The notes under the pieces: model-generated
The model's database searches: none
What the model was told of the DNA's origin: nothing
The model's input: the letters and a program-made list of their open reading frames with translations, nothing else
Part shown: positions 4,601-56,690 of the stretch, one piece after another
Numbering within the stretch: the first letter of the stretch is position 1
Layout of the letters: every line of letters starts with the position of its first letter
Position numbers and translations under genes: made by a program
Sequence record: MG383452
DNA length: 64,000 nucleotides
Strand: one strand, 5' to 3'
From: Escherichia phage FEC14

Positions 4601-5166
4601 TTCCGTTCCCTATAAAATTTGACGAATGGTTGCCAACCTTCAAATGGGTTAACAAATTCATAATCAACTTTCATCTCATCAATGAAAGCCTCTATGTCGT
4701 CCTCTATGATACCGCCGCGATCTGCCTTTGAAATGCGGGTGATGGGACATTTAGTGCTCAGCGCCCATTCATATTCTTGAGGCGTCCGTAGATCACTCAC
4801 AATATAATGAATGTTAGGATTCTGTTCAACTAATGGGAGTTGGTAACGCTTAAAGAAAGACAAAAACAGATCCGGTTGGACATAACGAAGCCCCGTATCG
4901 CTGCCGAGATGAAGCCAGATCTGCCTTGGGGTTAATCCCTTGGGGTTATCTGGGTGAACATATGGCAAGTCCTTGATATCGTCCTCTACTTCCTCTGGCA
5001 ACCAAGGATAGATGTAATGAGCCACCCGACGCAACTCGTCCGAGAAAGATAAGCGCTGGATGTCCATATCACCCTGTAAATGGTGATAGCTGATGAGGGA
5101 CTCCAAACAGAAGTCCTTGCCGGAGCGCTTGCGCCCCGTAAAGAATTCAAGGTTCGGATACATCAT
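4597..5166 (-). CDS. 1: deoxynucleoside monophosphate kinase (T4 gene 1-like)
   Basis: 189 aa; N-terminal P-loop FFTGRKRSGKDF matches T4 gp1 FLSGVKRSGKDT. Confidence 0.55.
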   Translation of the reverse strand: MMYPNLEFFTGRKRSGKDFCLESLISYHHLQGDMDIQRLSFSDELRRVAHYIYPWLPEEVEDDIKDLPYVHPDNPKGLTPRQIWLHLGSDTGLRYVQPDLFLSFFKRYQLPLVEQNPNIHYIVSDLRTPQEYEWALSTKCPITRISKADRGGIIEDDIEAFIDEMKVDYEFVNPFEGWQPFVKFYRERK

Positions 5167-6212
5167 ACTGCACCTTCCAAGAACTTGGGATCAACGATCT
5201 TGCGGTCAATCGGAGAATGGGCGAGCGCGATGTTCAAACCATGATCCTGAATCAGGTTCATGTTGATGAGCTTGTCGTTCAGTTTGCAGTACAGGCAGTA
5301 CGCCATCTGCACGATCAGGCCGCGATCCGCGCCGTACTCCTTCAGGTGAGCGACAACAGTTTCCCACGGGCTGCCGATATCACAGTGATGAAGCACACCA
5401 GTGAACAGATTGCGGATATGGTTCTGGTTGGTCACGTTCGTGAAGTAGATCATGGAGTTGATGAAACCACCAGTGACTTTTGTGTCTTTGGTGATCTTGC
5501 CAAGCTGCTTCTGGCTGACTTCATTGTTGTAGTAATGAAGATTGTTAGAGAATAGCTTGTACTGACCGACATCAACATCTAACACCTGAGCAATCACTTC
5601 CTGAAGAATAGAGAACTCAATGAAGTTGATTGAACTCATCCCCCACAGAACATCCTGTGAGCGGTTGATGACCGTCAGGTTCAGACGACCTTCAACGATG
5701 GCGAACAACAGAGCCAGGTTACACACCATGTCCTTAGTCTTTGCTTCGCCGCTCTCGCTGAACTTCGCCAGACCAGCATCCGAATCTAGAGCCGGATCAT
5801 AGATGGTGAGGTACGCTTGACGAGTATTTGGGTTCTTGCGTAGGCGGTTGATAACGCTATCCAGCTGGCCATGGGCGTACAGACGCGGACCATAAGCGGC
5901 TCGCCATGTATGGCCATTATCAGAGAAGTTGGCGGCGCGAGGGAGGACACGGGACAAGAAGCGCACATCATCGCGCCCAGACAGAACCCAGAAGGTCTCG
6001 CCGATGGCAGCAATAGCCGATGAGTTGCGTCCTTCAACAGACAGCCAACGGTCGCGGATGTCAGAGACGGTGATCGTCACGCCATCAATAAAACGAGTGC
6101 CGTCTGTGTTGATCTCCGCGTTACCAGGGTCAGATTCAATCCCGTGCTCACGGATAGCCAAGACAGCCTGTTTCAGCATGTCGTTGTTGTTAATTGCTTT
6201 GATTTCCATCAA
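5163..6212 (-). CDS. thymidylate synthase / dCMP hydroxymethylase superfamily enzyme; putative pyrimidine deoxynucleotide hydroxymethylase
   Basis: 349 aa; nucleophile Cys in KDMVCNLALLF followed 20 residues later by RSQDVLWGMSSINF, same spacing as T4 gp42 MCTN...RSND and TS PCH...RSxD...FN; NTRQAYLTIYDP loop; no TS-type His after Cys. Confidence 0.7.
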   Translation of the reverse strand: MMEIKAINNNDMLKQAVLAIREHGIESDPGNAEINTDGTRFIDGVTITVSDIRDRWLSVEGRNSSAIAAIGETFWVLSGRDDVRFLSRVLPRAANFSDNGHTWRAAYGPRLYAHGQLDSVINRLRKNPNTRQAYLTIYDPALDSDAGLAKFSESGEAKTKDMVCNLALLFAIVEGRLNLTVINRSQDVLWGMSSINFIEFSILQEVIAQVLDVDVGQYKLFSNNLHYYNNEVSQKQLGKITKDTKVTGGFINSMIYFTNVTNQNHIRNLFTGVLHHCDIGSPWETVVAHLKEYGADRGLIVQMAYCLYCKLNDKLINMNLIQDHGLNIALAHSPIDRKIVDPKFLEGAV

Positions 6213-47010: not shown

Positions 47011-47289
47011 TCATTCGGACTTAAACAGCAATTCGCGAACAGAAGTCCCAACGATATTTTGGGCGTTCAACAAACGAGTTAAATCATCCATGTCGTATGC
47101 TGAATTGGTGACATGGCCCAAGATAATCGCCAACATTCCCTCCAGCGCTCTCCGATTGTTATTCTCTTCAATGTCAAACTTAATTTCAACAAATCGAGAT
47201 AGCATTCTGGATTGAGCATGAGTTTCGTTGGTTTTGCTCTGTATAATATCTTTGATTTCCGAACGAGCAATACTTCTTTGATCTGTCAT
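47011..47289 (-). CDS. hypothetical protein (92 aa)
   Basis: ORF track; conserved upstream cassette. Confidence 0.45.
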   Translation of the reverse strand: MTDQRSIARSEIKDIIQSKTNETHAQSRMLSRFVEIKFDIEENNNRRALEGMLAIILGHVTNSAYDMDDLTRLLNAQNIVGTSVRELLFKSE

Positions 47290-47335
47290 GATATAGTTCC
47301 TTCATTTCAAATGGGCGGGGCAAAGATACCCCGCC
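47284..47335 (-). repeat. 5-prime cassette copy A: GGCGGGG stem-loop plus CATTTGAAATGAAGGAA RBS context
   Basis: near-identical to 47843-47894; hairpin GGCGGGG-CAAAGATA-CCCCGCC. Confidence 0.5.
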
Positions 47336-47341
47336 GTGGGT

Positions 47342-47848
47342 TTATAGGGTAACAAGTGATACGGTAAAAACCATCGTCCCATCTGTTGCCATTTTTCTTG
47401 AAACTGGGAAGACGCGAGGCTGACAGAATATCCATTCTTTCTCCATGGACGCCAAGTCCAGCATATCCATTTCTGATTCATCGCCTTTGTTCACAAATTT
47501 TTCTAGAGAACCAAAGACATTAAGCCCCTCTGGGAGTCCGTTTCGATGTTTATAACAAATGCGGGCAACAGCTTTGGTTCCATACGATTTAGAAAATTGT
47601 TTGGCCACATGCTTCAGTTCGCTGAAACTAAGACAAGAATCCCATGTCTGAAACATGTCTCCTCGTTCAAACATCATCTCCAAACGCGCAACGTCCTCTT
47701 TAGGCAACCCGCGATAAAGTGTGGTCATCTGCGGTTCGCGTAATTCTTGCACCAGACCACGGATGGCAGGGGAAACAGTGCCAGGGCGCATGATGTGGGA
47801 CTTATCATGGACGAGGTAAAATAAATCTTGAATTTGTTGATCGGTCAT
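47342..47848 (-). CDS. hypothetical protein (168 aa)
   Basis: ORF track; starts MTDQ like the downstream 92-aa gene. Confidence 0.45.
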   Translation of the reverse strand: MTDQQIQDLFYLVHDKSHIMRPGTVSPAIRGLVQELREPQMTTLYRGLPKEDVARLEMMFERGDMFQTWDSCLSFSELKHVAKQFSKSYGTKAVARICYKHRNGLPEGLNVFGSLEKFVNKGDESEMDMLDLASMEKEWIFCQPRVFPVSRKMATDGTMVFTVSLVTL

Positions 47849-47894
47849 GATGTATTTCCTTCATTTCAAATAGGCGGGGTAATCATACCCCACC
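47843..47894 (-). repeat. 5-prime cassette copy B: stem-loop plus TATTTGAAATGAAGGAA RBS context
   Basis: about 36-nt near-identity with copy A including first codons ATGAC(A/C)GATCAA. Confidence 0.5.
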
Positions 47895-47907
47895 CTAAGT
47901 TATAGAA

Positions 47908-48147
47908 TTAACTGATGTGCTTCAGAAGAGCGAAGAGGATCGCGGCCTTGGCTTTCACCTTTCCGACGACGCCTGTTTCGACGTCGACTTCTTCGGCAAC
48001 CCAATCTTTTCCCTTCTTGCTGATGATAACATCGCGGCGCTGGGCATATACTTCTTTGGTCGCATACACACGACGGAACCCTTTAGCGCGGAGCAAGCCC
48101 CAATTACGATCAATCTCCACTGAAGTTTCTACCATTTTGTTCTTCAT
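47908..48147 (-). CDS. hypothetical protein (79 aa)
   Basis: ORF track. Confidence 0.4.
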   Translation of the reverse strand: MKNKMVETSVEIDRNWGLLRAKGFRRVYATKEVYAQRRDVIISKKGKDWVAEEVDVETGVVGKVKAKAAILFALLKHIS

Positions 48148-48231
48148 GATATAATCTTACCTTTCAACCTGGTGAACCCATCGTTCGCCAGTTATTGAAT
48201 AATACGCATTTGCCTTATAGAAGTAAACCCC

Positions 48232-48264
48232 TAAAAGTAAAAATCCCCAACGTTTGTTGGGGAT
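48232..48264 (-). terminator. rho-independent terminator downstream of ACP-like gene
   Basis: ATCCCCAAC-GTTT-GTTGGGGAT hairpin followed by TTTTACTTTT on minus strand. Confidence 0.5.
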
Positions 48265-48270
48265 CTTCAG

Positions 48271-48603
48271 TTACTTGCGCAGGGCAACCACGTATTCGGC
48301 AAGTTCACCCATGGTCGGGTCGTCGCCTTTACCGCCCAGCCAGCCATCAGAGATCTCGACATTGAACTCTTCTTCTAGTTCCATGACGATTTCGATGGCA
48401 TCAAGATCGTCGCCGCCGAGGTCTTTCTTGGTGCGGAGGCCAGCCAGTTTATCCAGGGCGTCATTCATAATCACTTCCGCGTCGACGATGCCTTTGATGC
48501 TGCTCTTGTCTTCGTCACTGACTTCCAGGTTCAGATTGTCAGTGGCGTACTGAGCCAGGTGACGCATTACTTCAACATAAGTTGGTTTGTTTGACATAAG
48601 CAT
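48271..48603 (-). CDS. acyl carrier protein-like protein lacking the phosphopantetheine serine
   Basis: 110 aa; DLGGDDLDAIEIVMELEEEF aligns with E. coli ACP [20 protein letters not shown], Ser replaced by Asp; C-terminal extension. Confidence 0.55.
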   Translation of the reverse strand: MLMSNKPTYVEVMRHLAQYATDNLNLEVSDEDKSSIKGIVDAEVIMNDALDKLAGLRTKKDLGGDDLDAIEIVMELEEEFNVEISDGWLGGKGDDPTMGELAEYVVALRK

Positions 48604-48632
48604 ATCTCAAAATGAAGGCGGGTTTCCCCGCC
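48604..48632 (-). terminator. stem-loop/terminator (GGCGGG-TTTC-CCCGCC) of cassette family
   Basis: hairpin followed by TTCATTTTGAGAT and ATG of ACP-like gene. Confidence 0.45.
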
Positions 48633-48640
48633 AGTTGAAT

Positions 48641-50857
48641 TTAGATTTTGACTTCTTTTTCAGCCAGTTCGGCAGTGACAGTGTATTTCACCCCATCAAC
48701 TTCCACATCCATAGTGGATTCTTCCAAATCCAGGTCGGTAAACCAACCATGGCCTGCAACAATCCCATAAACTACCTTGGACAGCGTTTTGTTCAGAGAT
48801 CGAACTTCGTTGATAGCTGCTTTTGCTGCATCACCAATCCAACTTTCGATCAGCTTTTTCTGAGTCTCTTCCGGTACGCTGGTGATCATCGGCGATTTAA
48901 CAAACGCATTGTATTCGGCCAGGGCATTAGCGATCAGCTGATCAGCGACATTCAGTTTTTTACCGTCCGTCTGTTTTTTGATAACAGACGCGATGCTCGG
49001 CAGTGAAGATGCGCCTTTGATTTTCACATTCAATTCACGACTCATATAGACATCGGTTGATTCTACAGAAGAAGTCTTCGGTGAAAATCCATAGTCGCGA
49101 ATGCCGTTTGCTGACAGGAAATCAGCCGCTTCTTTGCCATATTTTGAAGCCAGACCAGTAGCGTTGCCTTTGCCAACCAGTTCATCACGGTAGAATTTCA
49201 GAACTTTTTGCTTTGCCTTCAATGCTTCACGGCGCACATTGTCTGCAAAGAATTCAGCAGCACTGATATTCTTTGTCATGGCGCGGTTAACCATTGGGAC
49301 ACTTTCCAGATTTACAATGAAGACTTCCGGCCCACCAAACACATGAACACCCATGGCAGTCAAATCCTGTGCCACCTTAGCCCGAATAATCGGAGAATCT
49401 GCAGTGATAGGCATTGTTTTCAGGTTGATGATACCATCCTTGACAATGGTGTAATTGCGATAACGCCAGGTTCCCAGCTCTTCAGGAAGTTCATATTTCT
49501 TCTGTACAAACTCAGGCACAACAACCGTTCCGTGTTGAACTGTCTGCACACTGATGTTAGGACGTTCTGAATTGTAGACCAAATTGCTGATCGGGACAAT
49601 CCCTTTATCATCTGCTGGATTGAATTCGGGGGTCCAATCTTCGTGCTCGGCCAGTTTGAGCGCCAGGGCTTTACGCTCTTCTTTAGAAGTCGCATTCGCA
49701 ATCTCTTCGGCCAACTTGTCTTCGGTGTCATCAACTTTCTGTACAGTACCGCGCCCAATGCTCTTGTAAGAGAATAGCGGATGCTTAGTGACAATAGAGA
49801 CATCTGCTTCAGCCAGATACGTCAGAACATCAACAATGGTGGTGGCGTCTTCAGCCGGAACCATATTATAATCGATGCCATCAACTCCTCGCAGAGATTC
49901 GTCTACGATAGCCTGGGTCAGATCGACTTTGATGTTGGAATAGTCCTGCTTGGTGAAACAGTTGCTGTATTGTTTGATGAAGCGGACGTCACCCGTTTTC
50001 TTCAGCGCAGCCCAAACCAAATCTGCGTCCATGGTATACACGCCGTAAAATGCCAGCACGTATGCCGCTTGGATGTCTGCCAGATTATCCAGCTGGTCGA
50101 TCATGTTGGGGTTTACAACCCACAGCTGAGAAACGCTTTCAGGGATGCTGACGTGGCCAATAGGGTGCTCTTCATCAGGATGCACAGCTAAAACAGTCGC
50201 CACGCCATTTTCAACATAAATGGCATGGGTGTAAACCAGGGGAACATCGACCACCACTTTCGGTGAAGAAGTTTTTAGCACGTTTTCCAATTCGGTCTGA
50301 TATTCATTCTGGCCTTCGGCGAATACGTGGGTCGCACCAGAACGTTCTGCCATTAGCGCCAGCAGTTCGCGATTACAATACCAACCGTATTCGATGAAGG
50401 TAATGTTATCAAACGCTTTGGGCAGTACTTCAGCGGCATCCAGGATTTCATTAGAACGCCAGCAGTTGTCATATCCGTCAGTCATGAATGCCAGGTTATT
50501 AACATAACCAGGTTTATTCAGGCTAATGGCAGTTTCCGCAGCCAATTTCAGCGGCTCAACAAAACCAGTACAACCAGAAGGCTTCAGGAAACGGTCAATT
50601 AGATTATTGATCTCAGTGAGATCAGTTGCACTGTTAATCTGACGTCCGGCAAATACCGTTCCGAAATCACCGCGAGATGAAAAGTAAAGGATGCTCACAG
50701 TATCTTCCGGTTTCACCAGGGAAGGCAGGTTCTCCTTCAGATGCTTACGGACTTCTGGAAGTGAACGATACATGGAACCGGAGATATCCACAACGATTAC
50801 ATGGTTAGACGGCGCGACGGTCGCAACCGCATTCTTAAATGTTAATGATTCAATCAT
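48641..50857 (-). CDS. von Willebrand factor A (VWA) domain protein (738 aa)
   Basis: N-terminal MIDAS-like VIVVDISGSMYRS; ATG 50857 with GAAGG RBS (tracked ORF starts at upstream GTG). Confidence 0.55.
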   Translation of the reverse strand: MIESLTFKNAVATVAPSNHVIVVDISGSMYRSLPEVRKHLKENLPSLVKPEDTVSILYFSSRGDFGTVFAGRQINSATDLTEINNLIDRFLKPSGCTGFVEPLKLAAETAISLNKPGYVNNLAFMTDGYDNCWRSNEILDAAEVLPKAFDNITFIEYGWYCNRELLALMAERSGATHVFAEGQNEYQTELENVLKTSSPKVVVDVPLVYTHAIYVENGVATVLAVHPDEEHPIGHVSIPESVSQLWVVNPNMIDQLDNLADIQAAYVLAFYGVYTMDADLVWAALKKTGDVRFIKQYSNCFTKQDYSNIKVDLTQAIVDESLRGVDGIDYNMVPAEDATTIVDVLTYLAEADVSIVTKHPLFSYKSIGRGTVQKVDDTEDKLAEEIANATSKEERKALALKLAEHEDWTPEFNPADDKGIVPISNLVYNSERPNISVQTVQHGTVVVPEFVQKKYELPEELGTWRYRNYTIVKDGIINLKTMPITADSPIIRAKVAQDLTAMGVHVFGGPEVFIVNLESVPMVNRAMTKNISAAEFFADNVRREALKAKQKVLKFYRDELVGKGNATGLASKYGKEAADFLSANGIRDYGFSPKTSSVESTDVYMSRELNVKIKGASSLPSIASVIKKQTDGKKLNVADQLIANALAEYNAFVKSPMITSVPEETQKKLIESWIGDAAKAAINEVRSLNKTLSKVVYGIVAGHGWFTDLDLEESTMDVEVDGVKYTVTAELAEKEVKI

Positions 50858-51020
50858 CGTTATTACCTTCTTTAGTGGTATGGACGGCTTCACCTTCCGG
50901 CTTCGCCAGCATGTGTTCTATGAATTCGCGATTAGTTTCAATCTGTTGGATTAAAACTTCGCTGGGTTTAAACTGTGAGTCAAGAGAGTCAACTCCTGAA
51001 CGCAAAAATGGTTTGGTCAT
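50850..51020 (-). CDS. small ORF (56 aa), translationally coupled
   Basis: unlisted frame MTKPFLRSGVDSLDSQFKPSEVLIQQ...; start 1 nt after upstream stop, stop overlaps VWA start (ATGA). Confidence 0.3.
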   Translation of the reverse strand: MTKPFLRSGVDSLDSQFKPSEVLIQQIETNREFIEHMLAKPEGEAVHTTKEGNNDD

Positions 51021-53301: not shown

Positions 53302-55320
53302 TTAGAAGATGACTTTTACAGTACGGTTAAACGCGCCGGACACTTTGACGAACACGTGGTTGCGTTGCGTCGTTGAGAATCCCAGACCGGACAGTTGGTT
53401 TTCATTCGGCTGGACTTTCATTTTACTACCCAACATTTCAAAAACCTTACGATGTTTATCCAGTTCCGGCTTCAGATATTCGTTGTAGAAACCACGAGTA
53501 CCTTCAGGATTAGCACAGCCTTCAAGAATGAAGAACACATGCTTGTTACCAGTTTGCTCCCCATCCCAATGGTTTGGTGAATTCAGAACCAGCTGTACTT
53601 TCTGGAAGGTCGCAGTCTTGATACCCCAAACTTCTTTAGACTTATCAACATTAGCCAGTTCGGACTTAATGCTAACGACTTGTTTGTCTTTAACAGTCAG
53701 GATGACTGCAGTGATACGCCCCTGATCTTTCAGGCCAGGATGGCTGAAACGATGCGTTGCGCCTTTGTATTCTACTTCGACTTCAAACCCTTCGTCGATC
53801 TTTTCACGTTGATTGTAGTTGTGGATTTCGAAACGGTATTCACCATCGCGCAGCTTGCTTTCATCTGTAAAGATGATATTTTCCACCGGAGCGCGGTTTG
53901 GATCAATACCATCCATACCGTTCATATCGATATCCAGATGGGCACCTGTCATAGAGCGACGATCACGGAAGTACACGTGCTCCATATTGTTAAAGAACAT
54001 ATGAAGATCGAGGTCGTCGTTATTGTGCCACGCCAAGGAAACGCGCAGATACCCGTCAACTTTACCACCAGCAGCCTTTACACGTTCTTTAATGGAATCG
54101 GTCACTTCACCGTTGTAAGACCAGGAGAACCCGTTGTTCCACTTGAACAGGTTAGGCGCATCTGGGTTCGCCGGAGCAACCAGGGACATCAGGTTGCTAG
54201 TATGAGAATTCTCTACAAGCACTTCCATTGAATGCGCTTTTGGCAGAACATTGCTCAGGAAATCATCAACGCTGATCTCTTCAACTTTTTCCAGGGACTT
54301 GGTCGGAGTTTTCACTTCGGCGGCCAGCTGTGCAAACGGATCCATCGCTTTCTGAGCAGCCAGATCTGCGAACAGAACGTTGTTGATTGTCAGATCATCG
54401 TAAACCGCATAACGACGCGCCAGTGAGTCTTCCAAACCCAGAGCAATAACTTCTTTCTGAGCGTTTTCGATCATGGATTTTGAAACCAGCGCTGTCGGAC
54501 GTTTGTAGTTCGCCGGAGCAACTTTGGATTCAAACGATTTAACAGCCTTTTCCAGTTCCACGCCTTCGCTGATATCTGTCAGCAGAGTGCCGATAACTGT
54601 GTTACGGATGCCGTGTGGAACATGATTGTTTGAACGGTATCCAGTATGCCATGCCCACAGAGAACGGGCTGATTCGGGGATTTGTTCATACGCTTTTTTG
54701 GTTTCAACAAATCCCTTCACTGCTGCTTTGTGTTCTGCGCCGCGATACAGAGAATTCTGGTCAATCAGTTCCAGAACGATTTCAGCTGATTCCAGAGTAA
54801 TTTCACGCAGACCGCGTTCAAACAATTCAATAGCCTGGCGGATTTCACCTTTTTTCGAAGCGATTGCGTCCGGACGCAGAACATAGCTACCCAGCAGGTC
54901 GGTGTGGAAGTGGTTGTAGGTGCGGACATTGCCGTCTTTCATTTCGTGATTCGACTCAACACCGACTTTCTTGGTATCGTTGAAGTACACGTCGACGATT
55001 ACGTGTTGCTTGACATACGCAGACAGCGCCGCAGCCACCACGTCATATTCATTACCCAGATCAATGTTGTCCCAGATAGAAATTACGTTCAGGTCGGAGT
55101 CGATGGTGATCACACCGCCGATGTTACGGATGAATTGTTTACAGCAGGTGCAGTCGTGCTCAGTACGCTCACGGTAGAGCGGGTTGGTACCAGCAGGGAA
55201 AGATGCCAGATACAGATCCCAAAGAGCATCTTTATCGATATTGGTCATGAACAGACCAGTTGCGGACATCGCCAGCACGTTGTTATTAACTGCCGTTGCG
55301 AAGGGTTTGAATTCTGCCAT
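53302..55320 (-). CDS. large hypothetical protein (672 aa)
   Basis: ORF track; no motif recognised by eye; lies in the operon downstream of regA. Confidence 0.55.
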   Translation of the reverse strand: MAEFKPFATAVNNNVLAMSATGLFMTNIDKDALWDLYLASFPAGTNPLYRERTEHDCTCCKQFIRNIGGVITIDSDLNVISIWDNIDLGNEYDVVAAALSAYVKQHVIVDVYFNDTKKVGVESNHEMKDGNVRTYNHFHTDLLGSYVLRPDAIASKKGEIRQAIELFERGLREITLESAEIVLELIDQNSLYRGAEHKAAVKGFVETKKAYEQIPESARSLWAWHTGYRSNNHVPHGIRNTVIGTLLTDISEGVELEKAVKSFESKVAPANYKRPTALVSKSMIENAQKEVIALGLEDSLARRYAVYDDLTINNVLFADLAAQKAMDPFAQLAAEVKTPTKSLEKVEEISVDDFLSNVLPKAHSMEVLVENSHTSNLMSLVAPANPDAPNLFKWNNGFSWSYNGEVTDSIKERVKAAGGKVDGYLRVSLAWHNNDDLDLHMFFNNMEHVYFRDRRSMTGAHLDIDMNGMDGIDPNRAPVENIIFTDESKLRDGEYRFEIHNYNQREKIDEGFEVEVEYKGATHRFSHPGLKDQGRITAVILTVKDKQVVSIKSELANVDKSKEVWGIKTATFQKVQLVLNSPNHWDGEQTGNKHVFFILEGCANPEGTRGFYNEYLKPELDKHRKVFEMLGSKMKVQPNENQLSGLGFSTTQRNHVFVKVSGAFNRTVKVIF

Positions 55321-55433: not shown

Positions 55434-56690
55434 TTATTCAGGTTTCTTCAAACGATCTAATAAATTGACCGATCCGCGATTGAGGACAATTTCATCGCAT
55501 CGATTTTTGTATCTCCCGCCTCCATCATAACCGACCTTGCCGCGTGGCTTTTCCCCTCTCTCGATAGCCTCAACACAGCGGGTGTACTTGCTCAATTCAC
55601 AGAACATGTTCTCCAGCTGCATGACGTTCATGCACTGATCTTCCGGCGCTTCGGCTGACCAGAACTGCTCTTGGACATAACCATACTGAGCAAACAATTG
55701 ATACTGATGATCACGAACCCAGAATATGCATTCTTCATGAGTCATGCCGTCCTTATCCAGGAACATCAGGTCAATACCCGCACGGCAACCTGGACCAGCA
55801 ATAGTGAAATGATTCTCACTGAATGGATATTCATCGATGTATGTAAAATCAACCCAAATCTGGTATGCCAAGAATGGTCCAAGCCCCTCAATGTCGTCAT
55901 ACATCGCCTGGTAAACAGAGTCGGGACGGCTAAATTCCCTGAGGCGATCAAAGTAATGAGGGTGTTTGTTGACGAATGCCTTCAAAGAGCGAATGACTCG
56001 CATCGGCATGTATGGTTCCCAGCCTTCTATTTTGTATTCACCAGGATTATCTTCGGCCAGCTTCTTGGCAACCTTGTAATCCATTTCATCTATAACACCA
56101 CCCACCCGATGGACTTTTACCTTCATGCCGCCAAAGCGTTGCTCCTTATGGTTGACAACCAGTTCAGGGAAAGCTAGGCATTGTTTCAGACCGCCTGTAT
56201 TAAACGCATTGGTGAAAACTTTGCCACCTTTAGATTCGAATTCCTGAAGAACATCTCGACACCATTCAAGATTTATGTTTCCGAATTCTTCGATCGTCCA
56301 TGGACCACCCAAAGCCTGTATAGGTTCCCACATGTTGTACATGCGGAACAATACACAGTTAAACATTTTGTCAGATAGCGTGAGATCCTGATCGAGGATG
56401 ATATTATTGATCAAATTTCGAGACTGCCTATCGTGCTCTCTCCGGACGTTACAGAACTTGACCTGCCGTAGTATGGGATTATCCGTCCAAGGAGCAGGAA
56501 GACGCTGGACGTCCTTTCTCACGTGGATCTTATAACGCTCGCTCATCCATTCGTATGCGAGTTGTTTATGGAATGGGCTTAACATGGGATGTGCAGATTT
56601 AATTTTAACTTCCCGAACACCGCAATAAGGAATGTCACACGGTTTATCTTTCATGGTATCCTCTCTAGAATACAAAAAAACAGAGGCCAT
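55434..56690 (-). CDS. hypothetical protein (406-418 aa); candidate DNA-modification enzyme by context
   Basis: ORF track; alternative ATG at 56654 with GAGG RBS; first ATG sits in terminator loop. Confidence 0.5.
   Translation of the reverse strand: MASVFLYSREDTMKDKPCDIPYCGVREVKIKSAHPMLSPFHKQLAYEWMSERYKIHVRKDVQRLPAPWTDNPILRQVKFCNVRREHDRQSRNLINNIILDQDLTLSDKMFNCVLFRMYNMWEPIQALGGPWTIEEFGNINLEWCRDVLQEFESKGGKVFTNAFNTGGLKQCLAFPELVVNHKEQRFGGMKVKVHRVGGVIDEMDYKVAKKLAEDNPGEYKIEGWEPYMPMRVIRSLKAFVNKHPHYFDRLREFSRPDSVYQAMYDDIEGLGPFLAYQIWVDFTYIDEYPFSENHFTIAGPGCRAGIDLMFLDKDGMTHEECIFWVRDHQYQLFAQYGYVQEQFWSAEAPEDQCMNVMQLENMFCELSKYTRCVEAIERGEKPRGKVGYDGGGRYKNRCDEIVLNRGSVNLLDRLKKPE

Follow-up and report, generated by a model that had tools for sequence, protein, structure and literature searches.

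What does a protein annotated as an acyl carrier protein (ACP) do for a phage when the serine that defines a carrier is absent from it? This question is raised by a small gene in the window, by which we mean the whole stretch of 64,000 nucleotides that was analysed. The source of the window is a Kuttervirus (Ackermannviridae), and its bases 47800-51000 are 99.1% identical to Salmonella phages SS3/SS9, 98.5% to PhiSH19, and 97.7% to E. coli phage CBA120. The gene is already labelled 'acyl carrier protein' in RefSeq (CBA120 orf142) and PHROGs (phrog_4154), and in hundreds of Ackermannviridae genomes it bears this annotation and is classed as an auxiliary metabolic gene. Using tblastn, we found it in 272 phage records. 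In our literature search, no paper on the function of this Ackermannviridae family was found.

The gene and the features around it are listed in Table 1. The profile of phrog_4154 matched the ORF with E 2.6e-57 over residues 3-110 (profile positions 1-108 of 108, i.e. the full length). The start codon is probably the third codon of the ORF, the ATG at 48597. This codon is favoured because a GAGA lies 9 nt upstream and because the homologues, which begin MS.KP, and the RefSeq CDS of SS9 (327 nt) begin there. Residue numbers below refer to the resulting 108-aa protein, in which Asp64 corresponds to Asp66 of the 110-aa ORF. The protein is as acidic as an ACP, with a pI of 4.2 and a net charge of -14 (-15 for E. 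coli AcpP). In CBA120 (NC_016570; L001:8472-8783), the RefSeq CDS of orf142 has 312 nt and 103 aa, compared with 327 nt and 108 aa here and in SS9.

Table 1. Positions of the ACP-like gene, its parts, and the adjoining features in the window
Feature	Position	Strand	Basis
Maximal ORF of the ACP-like protein	48271-48603	minus	110 aa, ORF list
Probable CDS of the ACP-like protein	48271..48597	minus	108 aa + stop; phrog_4154, PF00550, homologue starts
Helix I equivalent, residues 7-21	48535..48579	minus	AlphaFold2 secondary structure; MAFFT via shorter Glu-type relatives
Loop-I insert, residues 24-56	48430..48528	minus	not in canonical ACPs; variable in sequence and length
Helix II with N-terminal cap, residues 59-78, DLGGDDLDAIEIVMELEEEF	48364..48423	minus	14/20 identity to E. 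coli ACP; predicted helix 64-78
Codon GAT of Asp64, Ser36-equivalent	48406..48408	minus	gap-free alignments; Asp/Glu in every family member
W-x-G-x(2-3)-G-D-D-P-T loop preceding helix IV, residues 86-95	48313..48342	minus	family signature; 3-residue insertion vs ACP
Intrinsic-terminator-like hairpin with U-run, 2 nt past the ACP-like stop	48226..48269 (hairpin, 48238-48269)	minus	14-bp stem, -19.8 kcal/mol, z -4.25
GC-rich hairpin GGCGGG GAAA CCCGCC, then UUCAUUUU	48617..48632	minus	terminator scan; -15.6 kcal/mol, z -3.5
VWA neighbour, upstream, 738 aa, N-terminal von Willebrand A domain	48641..50857	minus	PF00092 31 bits, phrog_2426

The sequence-only reading had taken the product for a homologue of ACP, and Pfam, phmmer, MAFFT, hhalign, and the AlphaFold2 model with Foldseek all agree with it. 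For instance, the PP-binding family PF00550 matched at 31 bits (gathering score, 20.8; E 3e-7), over residues 61-105 only. In a phmmer search against the ACPs in PDB, the best match was B. subtilis ACP (1HY8/2X2B, E 7e-7), followed by many other ACPs and E. coli AcpP (E 1e-4). When the family profile was compared with an ACP profile by hhalign, the probability was 99.2% (E 2e-19). In addition, the AlphaFold2 model, which was built with 21 family sequences as input, has six helices at moderate confidence (pLDDT 73.8), and almost all of its Foldseek matches in PDB were ACPs, with a probability of 1.0 and a TM of 0.7-0.75 on target length. These matches include the AcpS-ACP complex 4DXE and E. 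coli AcpP with its FabZ, FabH, LpxA-family, and BioI partners. Phage ACP models in BFVD also matched.

The proposed residue-for-residue match of helix II was borne out as well, since DLGGDDLDAIEIVMELEEEF shares 14 of its 20 residues with E. coli ACP in an alignment without gaps, and the MAFFT register through helix II agrees with Pfam, phmmer, and hhalign. In this register, Asp64 stands gap-free on the phosphopantetheine-bearing Ser (Ser36 of E. coli ACP), as had been claimed. However, the 30-aa C-terminal extension described in the same reading is wrong, because hhalign reaches both C-termini with a single 3-residue insertion (GDD), and the 30 residues after EEEF compare with 27 in E. coli ACP. 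The extra ~30 residues sit between helix I (7-21) and helix II (64-78), and form two short predicted helices (28-39 and 45-52). The gene product is an ACP-fold protein, predicted to be carrier-dead, that keeps the four-helix scaffold and the recognition helix II. Mimicry of the ACP of a particular host was considered and rejected, as the closest solved structure is B. subtilis ACP rather than an enterobacterial AcpP; helix II is therefore generically ACP-like.

It is well known that phosphopantetheinyl transferases (PPTases) act on the Ser at the N-terminus of helix II. This Ser is absent from the window protein and from all the homologues found, in agreement with the proposal that the protein is non-acylatable. 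The protein is predicted to escape phosphopantetheinylation at the canonical site and to carry no acyl groups; without the attachment Ser, it would have to act through protein-protein binding. In addition, because this Ser is the defining feature of a carrier, the protein should not be filed as a functional ACP. It is scarcely credible that the protein is a true carrier whose loading takes place at a different residue, or by way of some unusual chemistry on the Asp/Glu side chain. The database label agrees with such a carrier, and there are 5 Ser and 4 Thr elsewhere in the protein. However, none of these is invariant except T95, which lies in the loop before helix IV, and PPTases use the helix II position. 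Furthermore, the NCBIfam ACP equivalog score is half the cut-off (35 vs 70 bits), and over the equivalogs TIGR00517 and PRK00982 the best scores were 35-36 bits against cut-offs of 66-106 bits, i.e. below threshold. Meanwhile, no fatty-acid, polyketide, PPTase, synthase, ligase, or acyltransferase genes were found in ~34 kb (CBA120, SS9, and the scanned ORFs) of the ~157-kb genome.

The next point is how firmly the acidic residue is kept. Aligned at the Ser site, as the sequence-only reading had suggested, the homologues found had Asp or Glu throughout and never Ser. This was the case for all 21 full-length homologues with 50-92% identity. In a profile search of 1.84 billion representative proteins, no more than about ten additional full-length relatives came up; among them, P0030-P0037 (32-49% identity) have Asp/Glu at this site without exception, and the contigs of P0030, P0034, and P0037 show Ackermannviridae synteny. 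In addition, we found an unannotated, divergent 99-aa ACP-like ORF of the Glu type, with MDELDYIEFIMELEDD, in Erwinia phage vB_EamM-Bue1 (MG973030, Nezavisimistyvirus; L226:4810-5109). It lies directly after a VWA gene whose product is 51% identical to that of the window, and the deposited record leaves this 440-nt gap empty.

The ACP-like family has a length of 103-109 aa. Across the extended alignment, D63, L65, E69, M72, and E75 (D35, L37, E41, M44, and E47 of AcpP) are invariant, and D66, I82, D84, D92, and P94 are conserved in at least 90% of the sequences, the first three corresponding to AcpP D38, I54, and D56. The residues that contact partners (D63, D66, E69, and E75/E76, the last being E47/E48 of AcpP) are invariant or nearly so even at 32-40% identity; of these, D63, D66, E69, and E75 are exposed to solvent. 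In the alignment of the 21 family sequences, W86, G88, D92, D93, P94, and T95 are also invariant. A related loop, DDP[TQS], is found in the Glu-type phage proteins P0041 and P0049, and P0045 has a GDDKIT loop. AcpS requires D35, E41, and E47/E48 of ACP, and IscS requires D35 and D38 (PMC13343975). These are the residues that are conserved here, which we take as support for docking via helix II.

Pairwise NG86 estimates among 22 distinct genes gave a dN/dS of 0.21 for the whole ACP-like gene, with 0.16 for helix I, 0.12 for helix II, 0.14 for the C-terminal third, and 0.61 for the loop-I insert. Strong purifying selection acts on helices I, II, and IV, and the insert drifts or diversifies. From the low dN/dS in the ACP core and the docking helix, it follows that the gene is functional and that the scaffold and the docking helix are what is selected. 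The conserved residues of helix II and its dN/dS are consistent with a binding function through this helix. These data contradict the reading of the gene as a decaying, functionless remnant of a captured ACP gene, which is very improbable. The lost catalytic Ser and a faster divergence than that of the neighbour genes would suit such a remnant. However, the gene has kept the same position across the genera of Ackermannviridae and is present in all the phage records counted above, the replacement is always acidic, the selection is as strong as stated (~0.2 over the gene, 0.12-0.16 in helices I, II, and IV), and mass spectrometry of phage Sajous1 revealed one peptide of the protein (PMC10892097).

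The ACP-like gene is located within a long minus-strand block of replication and early/middle genes, which include clamp, clamp loader, RegA, MazG, helicases, RNase H, a gp55-like late sigma factor, and a gp46/47-like nuclease. The GC-rich hairpin upstream lies between the VWA stop and the ribosome-binding site of the ACP-like gene. For the terminator-like hairpin downstream, none of 200 shuffles was equally stable, and a sigma-70-like promoter match (48227-48199) lies past it. Downstream of the ACP-like gene are a basic 79-aa protein, which is adjacent, and an Alt/Mod-like ADP-ribosyltransferase. Late expression, or a role in the virion, was also considered. It was rejected, as the T4-type late-promoter motif TATAAATA does not occur within ~18 kb of the gene, and the sole proteomic trace is the Sajous1 peptide. 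No Ackermannviridae transcriptome was found in the literature search.

The upstream neighbour deserves attention, as the VWA gene is immediately followed by the ACP-like gene in all the Ackermannviridae members that were examined, even where the VWA proteins are 51-78% identical, and the basic 79-aa protein adjoins the ACP-like gene as well. A cofactor-free structural or adaptor subunit for a phage protein or complex (the VWA protein, or a replication or DNA-modification enzyme) is thus a possible function, if a somewhat doubtful one. The invariant helix II surface and W/GDDPT loop fit it. In addition, there is a precedent, namely the essential Ser-less mitochondrial ACP (mACP) of Plasmodium, which acts purely by binding, with Isd11-Nfs1 (PMC8547962). 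However, the VWA synteny is confined to one virus family and is not independent evidence. Furthermore, Slopekviruses have a VWA homologue without an ACP-like neighbour, and the Glu-type ACP-likes of other phages have no common neighbour. The VWA, ACP-like, and 79-aa genes reassort freely. One VWA allele at 99-100% identity is paired with ACP-like alleles that are 67-77% identical, and a single ACP-like type can be found next to one VWA type or the other, and likewise for the two types of the 79-aa gene. These differing allele combinations argue against co-adapted, allele-specific partnerships among the three genes. Functional coupling to the VWA protein was therefore set aside, on account of the independent recombination and the Slopekvirus homologues, despite the family-wide synteny.

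As for the VWA protein itself, it is present in 500 phage records, one of which calls it a minor tail protein. Homologues with 45-51% identity are found in Straboviridae (Slopekvirus), a Pectobacterium phage, and Erwinia phage Bue1, and there are weaker VWA-domain matches in Rhizobium phages.

The DNA-modification variant of an adaptor can be judged from the genes further upstream. The 418-aa product of 55434-56690 (minus strand) is a 5-hmdU DNA kinase (PF18723, 283 bits) of the Ackermannviridae thymidine hypermodification machinery, and the adjoining 672-aa ORF (53302-55320) has no Pfam match. The kinase gene is ~7 kb away from the ACP-like gene. However, 5-NeOmdU synthesis of phage ViI has been reconstituted from gp67, gp160, gp226, gp243, and gp247 alone (PMC8989533), without the ACP-like protein and with no mention of ACP or VWA, and a role in thymidine hypermodification was rejected.

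The reassortment has a sharp outline at the DNA level. In loci L008-L012, the upstream VWA protein is 99-100% identical to that of the window (dS 0.06-0.15), but the ACP-like protein is only 67-69% identical (dN 0.27-0.28, dS 1.3-1.7). DNA identity to L008/L011 drops from 96-99% to 43-49% at ~48640, in the intergenic hairpin, and recovers past the next gene; the upstream hairpin of Table 1 lies on this breakpoint. The ACP-like gene behaves as an exchangeable allelic cassette. Beside the cassette is an accessory spot, the segment 47011-47848 (minus strand), with a 92-aa ORF and a 168-aa Alt/Mod-like 'RNA polymerase ADP-ribosylase' (phrog_832). This segment is missing or replaced in L003, L007, and L011 despite flanks that are 95-100% identical.

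Such a pattern brings to mind a counter-defence or conflict protein, in which the loop-I insert, itself variable, would be displayed to a host factor that also varies, such as an immunity protein; alternatively, such a factor would sense the protein. With a conflict role, the circulation of the gene as divergent alleles would be accounted for. It would suit the sharp cassette (from 96-99% to 43-68% DNA identity over the ACP-like gene), the dN/dS and the length variation of the insert, and the adjoining 47011-47848, whose presence, absence, or replacement among close relatives is typical of accessory host-interaction loci. However, relaxed constraint by itself could give the dN/dS of 0.61, and the best-conserved part of the protein is the docking helix found in ACPs in general, which suggests a target that is conserved rather than variable. 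In addition, the PADLOC defence and anti-defence models gave nothing significant (best E 0.004), and we rejected the gene as a known defence or anti-defence protein. On balance, a conflict role is unlikely.

Our best explanation, which is held tentatively, is that the ACP-like protein competes non-productively for an ACP-client enzyme of the host, with glycerol-3-phosphate acyltransferase (PlsB) and holo-ACP synthase (AcpS) as the likeliest clients. The protein would be expressed from the early/middle replication-gene region, and its helix II would dock non-productively on the basic ACP-binding site of the client. The negative charge of Asp/Glu may replace the phosphate of the absent cofactor. 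As a result, the supply of host membrane lipid or of holo-ACP would be damped during infection. We infer the binding function, the host partner, and the identity of the partner alike.

PlsB and AcpS are named since the likeliest clients would be those that accept cofactor-free ACP. It has been reported that apo-ACP inhibits PlsB more than holo-ACP does and arrests growth (PMC3896788), and apo-ACP is the natural ligand of AcpS. Both would be likelier targets than SpoT or IscS. The sequence-only reading had put forward SpoT, but this target is unlikely because SpoT does not bind apo-ACP (PMC3896788). Similarly, ACP S36T loses IscS binding (PMC13343975). As SpoT and IscS need the cofactor, a cofactor-less mimic may bind few clients. 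For the acidic residue, there is a parallel in the ACP-Isd11 complex, where an Arg stabilises the negative charges of the cofactor phosphate (PMC8547962); by analogy, the acidic replacement may mimic this phosphate.

The replication/early-type gene setting and the recurrence of the acidic replacement in ~14 unrelated large-phage contigs count for competition with a host client. Meanwhile, other points count against it. First, the conservation of helix II suits a phage-encoded partner equally. Second, the exchange of divergent alleles between near-identical backbones is unexpected for an invariant housekeeping target, although the variability is in the insert and not in helix II.

Compared with known systems, the protein resembles the bacterial type II FAS ACPs (E. 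coli AcpP and B. subtilis ACP) in its four-helix fold and its acidity, and AcpP in its helix II and in all the partner-contact acidic residues. However, unlike AcpP, it has Asp/Glu for Ser, ~30 additional residues that separate helix I from helix II, and three more ahead of helix IV; unlike the FAS ACPs, its gene shows no linkage to fab genes within the ~34 kb covered, and its scores are far below the NCBIfam ACP cut-offs. It can also be likened to apo-ACP, as a look-alike that would be permanently cofactor-free. However, apo-ACP is transient and is converted by AcpS, and the phage protein would not be convertible.

The closest functional parallel appears to be the apicomplexan mACP. This protein is cofactor-free and works by binding its partner, and its helix II glutamates are conserved (PMC8547962). 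Thus, in both cases the attachment Ser is lost and the helix II acidic residues are kept, and the phage protein would work most like this cofactor-independent ACP. However, the Ser is replaced by Phe in Plasmodium and by Cys/Gly in Toxoplasma, and the hydrophobic replacement packs on the co-evolved LYR protein Isd11 (PMC8547962), whereas the phage replacement is always acidic and the protein is viral. In that study, Ser-less ACPs were found only in Apicomplexa and one chromerid (PMC8547962). Earlier descriptions of such proteins come essentially from apicomplexan mitochondria alone.

Among phage genes, there are likenesses to phrog_5934 and its relatives, which are small orphan ACP-fold genes in large phages and are labelled as auxiliary metabolic or host takeover genes. 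A computational screen predicted that a phage ACP binds host FabZ (PMC13291599). The other phage ACPs mostly have DSL (more than 436 loci), and the proteins of Ackermannviridae are set apart from them as a separate family, phrog_4154, which has the loop-I insert. On the host side, there is a weak lead: a Klebsiella population that escaped a two-phage cocktail of cp34 and mtp5 (Slopekvirus) was reported to have a non-synonymous point mutation in acpP (PMC10433977).

These comparisons matter for annotation and for use. Some Ackermannviridae phages are in use against Salmonella, E. coli O157, Klebsiella, and Dickeya, and the annotation 'acyl carrier protein' is misleading because, from the sequence, the protein is predicted not to be a carrier. 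In bacteria, few hub proteins have as many connections as ACP. If a viral protein has kept nothing but the docking surface of ACP, it would lend itself naturally as a probe of which ACP interactions matter to an infection, and inhibitors of ACP-client enzymes could perhaps be modelled on it. Concrete hypotheses that can be tested follow from the constant choice of an acidic residue, from its recurrence in phages that are unrelated, and from the swapping of alleles as a cassette.

To see how far the acidic type extends, we scanned IMG/VR with the pattern G[AG]D[ED]LDx[VI]E. This gave 30 confirmed loci, 16 of them from Ackermannviridae, compared with more than 436 confirmed loci for the DSL pattern; the scans for Asp/Glu-type sequences are bounded by the search pattern. 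The remaining ~14 are on other viral contigs, mostly of 100-265 kb, and have canonical-length ACP-likes or ACP-like domains inside larger proteins. For instance, Glu/Asp-type domains lie inside proteins of 248-669 aa at L042:3-851, L055:3900-5906, and L060:4527-5273. When the Ser site was left free, the 80 best viral ACP-like loci, which were ranked by similarity to a Glu-type query and are thus not a fully unbiased sample, had Ser in 77 cases, Glu in 3, and nothing else. All-against-all BLAST of the flanking ORFs revealed no conserved neighbour of the Glu-type ACP-likes. L035 and L060 alone share two uncharacterised flanking families.

A change from Ser to Asp or Glu takes at least 2 nucleotide substitutions. 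For each Glu-type protein from outside Ackermannviridae, some viral ACP of the Ser type is a closer match than another protein of the Glu type, and the viral contig L040 has Glu-type and Ser-type ACP-like genes in tandem (4977-5231 and 5242-5550). Together with the counts at the site, this suggests that the change from Ser to Glu/Asp occurred several times independently in viral ACP-likes. In a wider reading, which is rather doubtful, the Glu/Asp would be a selected phosphate mimic, and the proteins would make up a recurrent, unrecognised class of carrier-dead ACP decoys that arose several times in large phages. The class would extend over the whole of Ackermannviridae and 14 or more further viral contigs, as well as the contig with tandem Ser and Glu types, and it may also take in exported bacterial lipoproteins. 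If this is true, its members would jam or re-route ACP-dependent processes of the host, such as the synthesis of phospholipid, lipid A, or holo-ACP.

Asp/Glu ACP-likes were also observed in bacteria. Among the top metagenomic matches, many have N-terminal lipoprotein-type signal peptides (P0083, P0095, P0098, P0110, P0117, P0139, P0140, P0155, P0170, and P0172). These appear to be exported ACP folds that would never meet a cytoplasmic PPTase. In addition, the nearest Ser-retaining relative with the GDD loop is an orphan 100-aa ACP on a bacterial contig (P0047; L030:5066-5368). It is flanked by ClpB and a type I restriction-modification/Ymh-type cluster, a context like that of a defence island.
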